Of a stretch of 64,000 nucleotides of DNA, positions 61,407 to 63,514 are shown piece by piece. Position 1 is the stretch's first letter. Each line of letters starts with the position of its first letter. The position numbers and the translations under genes are program-made. Source of the DNA: Mycoplasmatales bacterium (GTDB lineage: Bacteria; Bacillota_I; Bacilli_A; Mycoplasmatales; Mycoplasmataceae); the NCBI GenBank assembly GCA_965261505.1, contig OZ253448.1, positions 394,807 through 458,806 of the forward strand, in the 5' to 3' direction. The notes beneath the pieces were generated by a model. It searched no databases. It had not been told where the DNA came from and saw nothing but the letters and a program-made list of their open reading frames with translations.

Positions 61407-61898
61407 TTAAATCCCTTCAATGTAAAAAGGACGAGGGTGATCTTTTGTAAATCCTAGTATTGGTAAATACATTTCGCAAAGGGTAGGCTGATTATAAATG
61501 ATTTTTACTGGTTTGTAAAAAACACAAGGGAATAGTGACTTCACAAGTCCATCTAATTGACTTCAATCTAGATTTAGGGATCTAATTATTGGATATTTTT
61601 TTCATTCAGATGGCAAAATTTGTTTGCTACTTCCAACAGGAACCATGAGAGGAGATGTTTTATCACCAATTAAAGGATTATCTAAAACTTTTTTTTCAGA
61701 ACTATAGGTCTTAACTAATGTCATGGCATATTTTGTTTTAATGTCTGGGATTATTATAGCAGGAATTATTTTATTTCCTTTAATAGGATATGGAGGTATA
61801 TAAGGTAATTTCTTTTCGCTACAACTACTAACAATACTAGTCAAAGGACTAAAAAAGGCTATAACAGTTATTAAAGATAAAATTTTTCTCATCATCAT
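61407..61898 (-). CDS. Small lipoprotein, array copy 6
   Basis: MMMRKILSLITVIAFFSPLTSIVSSC. Reads through TGAs to ..LCEMYLPILGFTKDHPRPFYIEGI. 163 aa. Confidence 0.85.
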
Positions 61899-61948
61899 TT
61901 TTAATTAGATTAACATGGTTTATTACATTAATAAAAAACTAAAATAAT

Positions 61949-62428
61949 TTACCACCCTTTGATGTAAAAATTTCGAGGGTTTTCTTTTGTAAAACCTAAC
62001 AAAGGCAGATACATTTCACAAAGAACTGTCTGATTAGGAACAATGGTTACATGTTTAAATTTTACAAGAGGAAATAAATCTGTACTTAATCCTCCTAGTG
62101 ATTGTCATACATTCTTTAAAGTTTTAGAAACATTATCTCTAGGTCAATCCTTTGCTAAAATCGGCTCAGAACCATGAATAGGAAATGGTATAGGTGCTTG
62201 TTTTGAAGCAATTGATTGGTTATCTAAAACTTTTTTTTCAGAACTATAGGTCTTAACTAATGTTATAGCATGTTTTGTTTTAATGTCTGGAATTATTATA
62301 GCAGTTTCTTTAATAGGATATGGAGGTATATAAGGTAATTTCTTTTCGCTACAACTACTAACAACATTAGCCAAGGGGCTAAAAAGAGTTATAACAGTTA
62401 TTAAAGATAGAATTTTTCTCATAATCAT
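61949..62428 (-). CDS. Small lipoprotein, array copy 7
   Basis: Track ORF 62144..62428 reads through TGAs to ..VLCEMYLPLLGFTKENPRNFYIKGW. 159 aa. Confidence 0.85.
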
Positions 62429-62476
62429 GTTTAATTAGATTAAGATAGTTTAATGATATACAAAAAACAAAATAAT

Positions 62477-62980
62477 TTAAATCCCTTCAATGTAAAAAGG
62501 ACGAGGGTGTGATTTAGTAAACCCTAATATCGGTAAATACATTTCACTCAAGGTAGGCTGATTATAAATGATTTTTACTGGTTTGTAAGAAACACAAGGG
62601 AATAGTGACTCCACAAGTCCACCTATTTGACTTCAACCTAGATTTAGGGATCTAATTATTGGATATTTTTTTCATTCAGAGGGCAAAATTTGTTTGCTAC
62701 TTCCAACAGGAACCATGAGAGGATTTGTTTTATCACCAATTAAAGGATTATCTAAAACTGTTTTTTCAGAACTATAGGTATTAACTAATGTCATAGCATA
62801 TTTTGTTTTAATGTCTGGAATTATTATAGCAGGTATTATTTTATTTTCTTTAATAGGGTTTTCTATAGGATAAAGAGGAATAGGAGGCTCTTTCTTTTCG
62901 CTACAACCACTAACCACACTAACCAAAGGGCTAAAAAAGGCAATAACAGTTATTAAAGATAAAATTTTTCTCATAATCAT
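62477..62980 (-). CDS. Small lipoprotein, array copy 8
   Basis: N-terminus as in copies 1 and 3 (GCSEKKEPPIPLYPIENPIKENK), middle as in copy 6. 167 aa. Confidence 0.85.
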
Positions 62981-63034
62981 TTTTAATTAAATTAACATAG
63001 TTTAATAATTTATTATATAAAAAAACAAAATAAT

Positions 63035-63514
63035 TTAATCCCCTTCAATGTAAAAAGGACGTGGGTGATCTTTTGTAAAACCTAGTATCGGTAAATACAT
63101 TTCACTCTTGGTAGGTTGATTATAAATAATTGTTACTGGTTTATAAGAAACATAAGGAATTAGTGAATCTACAAGTCCTCCAATCTGACTTCACTCTTGG
63201 TTTAAAGTTGAAGTTACTTCATCACTCTTTCAATCAGAGGGTGGCATTTGCTGTCTACCTGCAATATTAATGAGAAAAGGATCTGTTCTAGAACCATTTA
63301 AAGGATTATCTAAAACTTTTTTTTCAGAACTATAGTCTATGACTAATTTTTCAGCTAATTGTGTTTTAATGTCTGGAATTATTATATTAGTTTCTTTAAT
63401 AGGATATGGAGGTACATAAGGTAATTGCTTTTCGTTACAACTACTAACAACATTAGCCAAGGGGCTAAAAAGAGTTATAACAGTTATTAAAGATAGAATT
63501 TTTCTCATAATCAT
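63035..63514 (-). CDS. Small lipoprotein, array copy 9
   Basis: N-terminus as in copy 2 (SCNEKQLPYVPPYPIKE), middle as in copy 1 (AEKLVIDYS). 159 aa. Confidence 0.85.

Follow-up and report, generated by a model that had tools for sequence, protein, structure and literature searches.

A tandem array of mosaic, putative lipoprotein genes reshuffled by recombination in a Mycoplasmatales bacterium

We describe a tandem array of small genes for putative lipoproteins, mosaics of one another, in a Mycoplasmatales bacterium. The array lies in a stretch of 64,000 nucleotides, here called the window, which covers positions 394807-458806 of the single 986,356-bp contig of the genome (OZ253448.1, assembly GCA_965261505.1) and has a G+C content of about 30%; coordinates are those of the window unless the genome or another contig is named. 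Read with translation table 11, the open reading frames (ORFs) of the array all break at TGA, while table 4, in which TGA encodes tryptophan, opens them. As every gene is truncated at TGA under table 11, table 4 was adopted for gene calling and the table 11 ORFs were discarded. On the minus strand, 58701-63514 is then filled by nine genes arranged head to tail, each 159-167 codons long and with 48-55 nt of spacer between neighbours; the order along that strand runs from c9 to c1. A longer gene on the same strand, the head gene, encodes 529 amino acids (aa); its 3′ end lies at 63570-64000 and it continues to window position 65159, beyond the window end. An earlier sequence-only reading had counted ten copies, but the array consists of nine small genes, one of them (c5) frameshifted and two (c2 and c4) identical, and the supposed tenth is not a truncated copy but the C-terminal module of the head gene. 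Downstream, the array is bordered by an IS3-family insertion sequence (IS) element on the plus strand (57368-58647, with a 395-aa transposase ORF at 57405-58592).

All copies start in translation with M(I/M)MRKILSLITV...(V/I)VS(G/S)C, with the cysteine at residue 26; the NCBIfam model for a Vmc-like lipoprotein signal peptide, NF045726, scores 16.8 bits, below its cut-off of 19.3 bits. This near-invariant lipobox signal peptide is followed by a disordered proline-rich linker, which we call the N cassette, and by a domain of about 100 aa, variable in its first half (the middle and distal cassettes) and conserved in its second. AlphaFold2 predicts residues 1-63, that is signal peptide and linker, to be disordered and residues 65-167 to form a compact alpha/beta domain with a predicted local distance difference test score (pLDDT) above 95. 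The small proteins match no Pfam family at E≤0.1 and no NCBIfam family above threshold, and in Foldseek comparisons of the module model with the PDB and BFVD the best E values were 0.27 and 0.22, with template modelling (TM) scores of at most 0.35. The ratio of nonsynonymous to synonymous substitution rates (dN/dS) is about 0.4-1.3 over codons 59-120 and 0.16-0.64 over codons 121-167 (at most 0.42 in eight of nine informative pairs), and the variable half is thus under relaxed or diversifying pressure, which is not proof of positive selection.

A hidden Markov model built from the family finds only 26 representative proteins among 1.84 billion. Three classes of protein carry the module, always at the C-terminal end: lipoproteins either about 160 aa or 265-344 aa long, and head-type proteins with about 520-533 aa. 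Among 40 related genomes there was one true module match, in another genus (G008), the remaining matches being to the signal peptide, and searches of genome contigs with c1 and of metagenome contigs with the family alignment returned no relatives.

In the nucleotide alignment of all copies (MAFFT, 505 columns, nearly gap-free), blocks of 97-100% identity adjoin blocks of 60-75% identity in the same gene pairs. The sequence-only reading had described interchangeable N-terminal, middle and distal cassettes at 61407-63514, and the peptides it quoted are all present under table 4 in the four complete minus-strand genes of that interval, c6 (61407-61898, 163 aa), c7 (61949-62428, 159 aa), c8 (62477-62980, 167 aa) and c9 (63035-63514, 159 aa). 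The mosaic it saw is real, but its either/or scheme is too simple: the N cassette has at least three forms, including the hybrid form PYIPPYPIKGNKIIPA in c5 and c6, and the distal cassette has four, including TDPITISVGFNKQILPSEW in c3 and c5.

The two clearest mosaics are c8 and c9. For c8, a junction of the first N cassette to the second middle cassette had been proposed, and the segment identities bear this out: the protein joins the N cassette GCSEKKEPPIPLYPIENPIKENKIIPAIIIPDIK to TKYAMTLVNTYSSEK, and at the nucleotide level columns 76-175 (the N cassette) are 99% identical to c1 and c3 versus 76% to c6, whereas the middle and distal segments are 94.7% and 96.5% identical to c6 versus 72% and 65% to c1. 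Along the gene, c8 is c2-like at 62980-62919 (2 mismatches), c1/c3-like at 62918-62819 (1 mismatch in 100 nt) and c6-like at 62818-62477 (22 mismatches), c6 being the source type for its body. For c9 the reverse join had been proposed. This stands as far as an N cassette of the type SCNEKQLPYVPPYPIKET.IIIPDIK (97.4% identical to that of c2 and c4) is joined to TQLAEKLVIDY, but the middle cassette of c9 is itself a hybrid, TQLAEKLVIDY followed by SSEKKVL. Its signal-peptide segment is 100% identical to that of c7 and its distal segment 99.1% identical to the head gene, and the whole of c9 resolves into six patches: 63514-63453 equals c7 (0 mismatches), 63452-63363 is c2-like (2 mismatches), 63362-63337 c1-like (3 mismatches), 63336-63184 like the head-gene module (1 mismatch), 63183-63107 c3-like (2 mismatches) and 63106-63035 c1-like (3 mismatches).

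Across the locus, otherwise diverged genes contain converted tracts that measure 63 to about 220 nt and have 0-6 mismatches. The mosaic genes all keep open frames, and their junctions are in register at conserved islands between the variable blocks, namely the start codon and early signal peptide, the lipobox, IIIPDIK, (V/T)KFAEKLVID, YSSEKKVL and EMYLP. Diversity has its minima at columns 2-31 and 152-166, with lesser dips, e.g. at columns 62-91.

The downstream part of the array carries the direct trace of an unequal crossover. A perfect tandem duplication at 59002-61197 comprises 2.03 units of 1083 bp, so that 59002-60114 is identical to 60085-61197 over 1113 nt. Its borders fall inside c1 (58701-59204, 167 aa, with the type-1 N cassette), c3 (59784-60287, 167 aa) and c5 (60867-61358), and it includes the identical 159-aa genes c2 (59256-59735) and c4 (60339-60818). 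The crossover zone is a 30-nt sequence, AGTAAAATTTGCTGAAAAATTAGTTATAGA on the minus strand, found at 59002-59031, 60085-60114 and 61168-61197. At the duplication junction sits c3, a hybrid that equals c1 over columns 1-174 and c5 over columns 175-505 without a mismatch. The present order c5-c4-c3-c2-c1 is the product expected from such an event: in an ancestral array c5-c4-c1, recombination between misaligned c1 and c5 copies would give c5-c4-[c1 5′/c5 3′]-c4-c1. The pseudogene c5 shares its 3′ 331 nt with c3, and its frameshift lies in the PYIPPYP codons, where a short C/T run has lost one base (CCTCC to CCCC).

Formal tests rule out chance as the source of the pattern and reject tree-like descent of the copies. 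The pairwise homoplasy index (PHI) is 0.166 against a null mean of 0.307, with none of 1000 permutations as extreme. In triplet tests all nine parent-parent-child triplets gave p<5e-5, none of 20000 permutations reaching the observed excursion, with runs such as 24 P followed by 74 q. A copying model, which seeks the least cost with mismatches counted as 1 and switches as 3, gave costs at z = -11 to -49 relative to column-permuted alignments; it recovered the two mismatch-free segments of c3, described c8 as segments of c2, c1 and c6, and described c9 as six segments with 0-3 mismatches each. A greedy breakpoint search modelled on GARD accepted breakpoints after columns 175, 245, 355 and 75, with changes in the corrected Akaike information criterion (AICc) of -405, -86, -48 and -36, and these breakpoints coincide with the cassette borders that had been claimed. 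Maximum-likelihood (ML) trees differ with high bootstrap support among columns 1-175, 176-345 and 346-505, the conflicting groupings being c1+c3+c8 versus c6+c8, c3+c5 and c2+c7. In approximately unbiased (AU) tests the N-terminal tree and those of the two downstream segments reject each other (p≤1e-5); between the two downstream segments the result is weaker (p 0.049 and 0.004). As recurrent mutation inflates the minimum number of recombination events (Rmin) at such divergence, the Rmin of 24 was not taken as an event count.

Without recombination, the pattern would have to come from convergent selection or from substitution rates that vary along old duplicates. In favor of this, constraint is not the same in the variable and the conserved segments. 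However, the identity also covers synonymous sites, tracts of 63-1113 nt carry no mismatch, and the segments conflict in topology and not merely in branch length. The duplication, the copying model, PHI, the segment trees and the triplet tests refute this account, and we give it practically no credence. The sequence-only reading had named tree-like divergence free of incongruence as the result that would speak against it, and the opposite was found; its attribution of the mosaic to gene conversion or unequal crossover between paralogs is supported by the topology conflict, the breakpoints, the duplication, the short tracts and the second strain described next.

Outside the genome, a protein search found relatives on just two contigs, both from one ENA metagenome assembly. 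One of them, L002, is syntenic with the window, and over 7.8 kb its flank, which takes in the IS3 element, tmk, holB and onward, has 99.0% identity, with the IS3-family element at the same site. The array of this second strain of the same species has five copies (M1-M5) versus nine. Two of the five have exact equals in the window, M5 in c1 and M3 in c6. The body of M2 is that of c7 with 2 mismatches, joined to a different signal-peptide segment (in c7 this segment, columns 1-63, is identical to c9 and unlike M2), and M4 corresponds to c2 but carries the signal-peptide segment of c5; in M2 and M4 the signal-peptide segments are thus swapped relative to c7 and c2. M4 is intact, and its 5′ end is shared with the frameshifted c5. 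M1 equals B1 over columns 1-259 and then c3 over columns 260-505, B1 belonging to a second array locus, which lies at 638 kb of the genome. Four inter-gene junctions are reproduced in L002 exactly or nearly. Several exchanges, no older than the divergence of about 1% between the strains, hence set the two apart. These events are recent, and some of them ran between the two array loci.

The spacers add to this picture. At every junction with a recurring 3′-end type (12 junctions, four types), the spacer type tracks the 3′ end of the upstream gene, and therefore the exchanged units are offset from the gene borders.

The second strain also bears on the possibility that the mosaics and the perfect duplication were created in assembly, by misjoined reads. 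The region repeats itself about every 540 bp, and c3, c8, c9 and the 1083-bp duplication are known from only one assembly. On the other hand, the genome is a single 986-kb contig, the independent metagenome contig reproduces c1, c6 and the four junctions, and L002 has different mosaics of its own (M1, M2 and M4). Misjoined reads also account poorly for mosaic genes that keep open frames and have in-register junctions at conserved islands, and we regard an artefact as very improbable.

A different origin for part of the diversity would be import, in which c8, c9 and the diverged genes upstream of the array arrived from another strain by conjugative chromosomal transfer of the mycoplasma type. 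Chromosomal transfer is documented to give mosaic genomes in mycoplasmas. The head gene and the neighbouring gene for a propeller protein are together 90.4% identical between the strains, versus 99.0% for the flank, and the body of c8 differs by 6.4% from its nearest relative c6 and has no counterpart in the other strain, all of which import would explain. It fits less well that most patches find their best donor in the same genome with 0-3 mismatches and that the duplication is strictly local; no conjugative element was seen near the locus, where none was searched for. We consider such import unlikely.

Exchange is not confined to the small genes. The last 110 codons of the head gene (63570-63899) encode the same module of about 100 aa that the small genes carry. 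The head protein (encoded with the propeller protein at L003 6377-10205) has an N-terminal signal sequence, a glycine-rich hydrophobic hairpin (GLSVGLSIAGLIAGFIPKFGDILGFLFGVLGLAL) and the array module at its C-terminus; its predicted structure, which is weak (pLDDT 63), contains a hydrophobic helical hairpin as well as long beta hairpins, and had a best Foldseek E value against the PDB of 0.18 with TM scores of at most 0.1. The head gene is preceded by the gene for a 744-aa BNR/Reg_prop propeller protein. The order propeller, head and module-bearing lipoprotein recurs at 19.5-25.1 kb of the genome (gene pair at 21277-25137), a truncated propeller/head pair lies at 637-639 kb (637238-638089), and in total the pair stands ahead of module-bearing lipoprotein genes at three loci here and on both contigs of the other strain.

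Between the strains, columns 701-1200 of the head gene are 98-100% identical, whereas the module is only 69-85% identical. The two head modules differ from each other at 64 of 339 sites and resemble array copies instead: the module of the window head gene (A0) is c9-like over columns 204-425 with 6 mismatches, and that of the second strain (M0) is c6-like (1 mismatch) and then c3-like. In the head gene it is the module alone that is replaced between the strains, which recalls donor-cassette systems, where a full-length gene receives its variable segment from the bank.

These observations could be taken to mean that the small genes are mainly donors, a cassette reservoir that rewrites the C-terminal module of a membrane-embedded head protein. 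The stability of the head-gene body next to its variable module, the resemblance of A0 and M0 to c9, c6 and c3 and the recurrent head/propeller pairing before module-bearing genes all agree with it. However, all copies other than the frameshifted c5 are complete, with ATG, signal peptide, lipobox and open frame, and are not promoterless fragments; the small genes exchange among themselves equally often; and c9 could equally be a recipient of sequence from the head gene. We hold a mainly donor role to be possible, with the weight of our judgement on the other side, and it is compatible with exchange throughout the array.

The reading that we favor is that the array has been shuffled by unequal crossover and by short-patch gene conversion at the conserved islands, through general homologous recombination, and we put its probability at roughly 85%. 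We suggest the following course. The array would be a tandem family of genes for small surface lipoproteins in which the conserved islands act as substrates for RecA-type homologous recombination. Crossovers between misaligned copies would duplicate or delete whole units and leave hybrids such as c3, while conversion of short patches (about 60-220 nt) would carry individual cassettes from copy to copy, from one locus to the other and into or out of the head module; c8, c9, M1, A0 and M0 show patches of this kind. Within one species, the resulting repertoire varies from strain to strain in copy number and in the combination of cassettes.

The genome encodes RecA (E 3.5e-122), whereas the Phage_integrase family (PF00589) has no match in the whole genome at E≤0.001, all 14 control genomes being positive. 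As no match to this family is present and all genes have one orientation, inversion switches of the vsa/vsp/vpma type are excluded, and with RecA present and a tyrosine recombinase not found we read the exchange as general homologous recombination; RecA is thereby the likely agent, judging from gene content. The lack of a Phage_integrase gene, that is of a tyrosine recombinase including the XerC/D type, is in itself unusual for a bacterial genome. The small proteins are probably variable surface proteins, by analogy with the variable lipoprotein families of mycoplasmas, and, if they are exposed as this implies, the benefit may lie in antigenic or ligand-binding diversity rather than in a fast programmed switch.

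Homopolymer runs are also present in the array. Most copies have an A8 run in the SSEKKVL codons (columns 214-221; 63326-63319 in c9), and the spacers contain T5-T7 runs just upstream of the TATAAT-like box found in each. Phase variation by change of run length is unsupported, as the orthologous junctions of the two strains show no length difference. In a promoter and terminator scan, promoter-like sites were no commoner than in shuffled sequence.

Several points weigh against the favored reading and should be set beside it. The single-assembly provenance of c3, c8, c9 and the duplication applies to each of them, and the distance of the c8 body from c6, combined with its lack of a second-strain counterpart, would call for loss in that strain or for import after all. 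The surface-variation function rests on analogy, and dN/dS is not clearly above 1, so that diversifying selection is not demonstrated.

Mosaic variable lipoprotein families are an established principle; the protein family of this array is undescribed. The closest parallels are the vpma and vsp repertoires of mycoplasmas, treated below, and the lpl cluster on the nuSa-alpha island of Staphylococcus aureus, a set of tandem lipoprotein paralogs (Tsuru and Kobayashi, 2008; PMC2568036). The lpl cluster and the array agree in having head-to-tail lipoprotein paralogs in one orientation, conserved sequence within the ORFs as the recombination site, 5′ and 3′ ORF parts that give incongruent trees (as in our AU tests), a gene 3′ end that travels together with the next spacer, and a copy number and combinations that vary between strains. 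The lpl cluster has one central conserved region while the array has several islands and at least four breakpoint zones. Of the lpl-type conserved unit of 3′ region, spacer and 5′ region of the next ORF, the array keeps the link between spacer and next gene only through about the first 60 nt of that gene. The array proteins, which match no Pfam family, have no sequence relation to Lpl, and the array differs in having a long head gene that shares and exchanges the module.

The vpma locus of Mycoplasma agalactiae and the vsp locus of M. bovis resemble the array as mollicute families whose signal peptide is conserved while the mature parts vary, with a repertoire that grows by duplication, with IS elements at the border of the locus and with copy numbers that differ strongly between strains (for vpma, 23 versus 6 genes; PMC2824730). 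They switch, however, by a Xer-type tyrosine recombinase and DNA inversion, and such Xer-driven loci have both orientations around a single promoter, whereas the array genes are all on the minus strand of a genome that lacks a match to the recombinase family. The array genes moreover have no internal tandem repeats, and their mature protein is predicted to be a folded domain and not a repeat-rich chain. In M. hyorhinis, each vlp promoter has a long homopolymer tract and the mature region has in-frame tandem repeats. The array, by contrast, has only T5-T7 in its spacers, and Tandem Repeats Finder reported nothing at 56000-64000, where the copies are too diverged and the genes without internal repeats.

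Systems in which the 3′ module of a longer gene is exchanged with a nearby bank, as it is here, are vlhA of M. synoviae, MgPa/MgPar of M. genitalium (PMC2169797) and pilE/pilS of Neisseria. The array differs from the donors of these systems in that its bank consists of complete, translatable genes (eight of nine) and not of truncated ones, and in that these genes also exchange cassettes with one another; transfer may run either way here and need not be directed at a single expression site. What the array adds to the established principle is a longer neighbouring gene that shares and exchanges the same module.

We see in the array a clean record of the diversification of tandem paralogs, which preserves a zero-mismatch junction gene and a 30-nt crossover zone alongside dated short tracts and for which a second strain allows comparison. 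The shuffling takes place without a dedicated recombinase and extends to a neighbouring longer gene and to a second locus. The orphan domain, with no Pfam or solved-fold match and with a confident model, is a defined target for structural studies and for work on host interaction in a mollicute lineage about which little is known. We further speculate, tentatively, that the locus could represent a three-part surface system new to mollicutes, made up of the BNR/Reg_prop propeller protein, the head protein (about 530 aa and inserted in the membrane) and the small lipoproteins as a bank, in which all parts but the propeller end in the orphan domain of about 100 aa and the bank would both supply alternative free-standing subunits and, through gene conversion, rewrite the head module. 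If so, the cell would change the exposed face of a fixed complex.

A few further observations concern the related loci. Four IS3-family copies of 93-100% identity are present in the genome, those other than the copy bordering the array lying at genome positions 565916-567195, 684657-685935 and 693758-695036. On L002, two oppositely oriented IS3 copies (4945-6223 and 12755-13936) flank the block of propeller gene, head gene and array in a layout like that of a composite transposon, and the propeller gene there is shortened to 532 aa. Within the window, a module-bearing lipoprotein gene at 10344-11093 is an open frame without start codon or signal peptide; its intact counterpart of 265 aa is found on the metagenome contig L095 (981-1778). 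On the same contig, which belongs to the metagenome of the other strain, the 265-aa lipoprotein and a 521-aa head-type protein (4180-5745) share an identical module of about 100 aa, which suggests conversion between the two genes. Finally, one related genome contains an array of frames of about 76-100 aa (G013:C1:529375-533420) that match only the signal-peptide part of the family and probably constitute an unrelated variable lipoprotein array.

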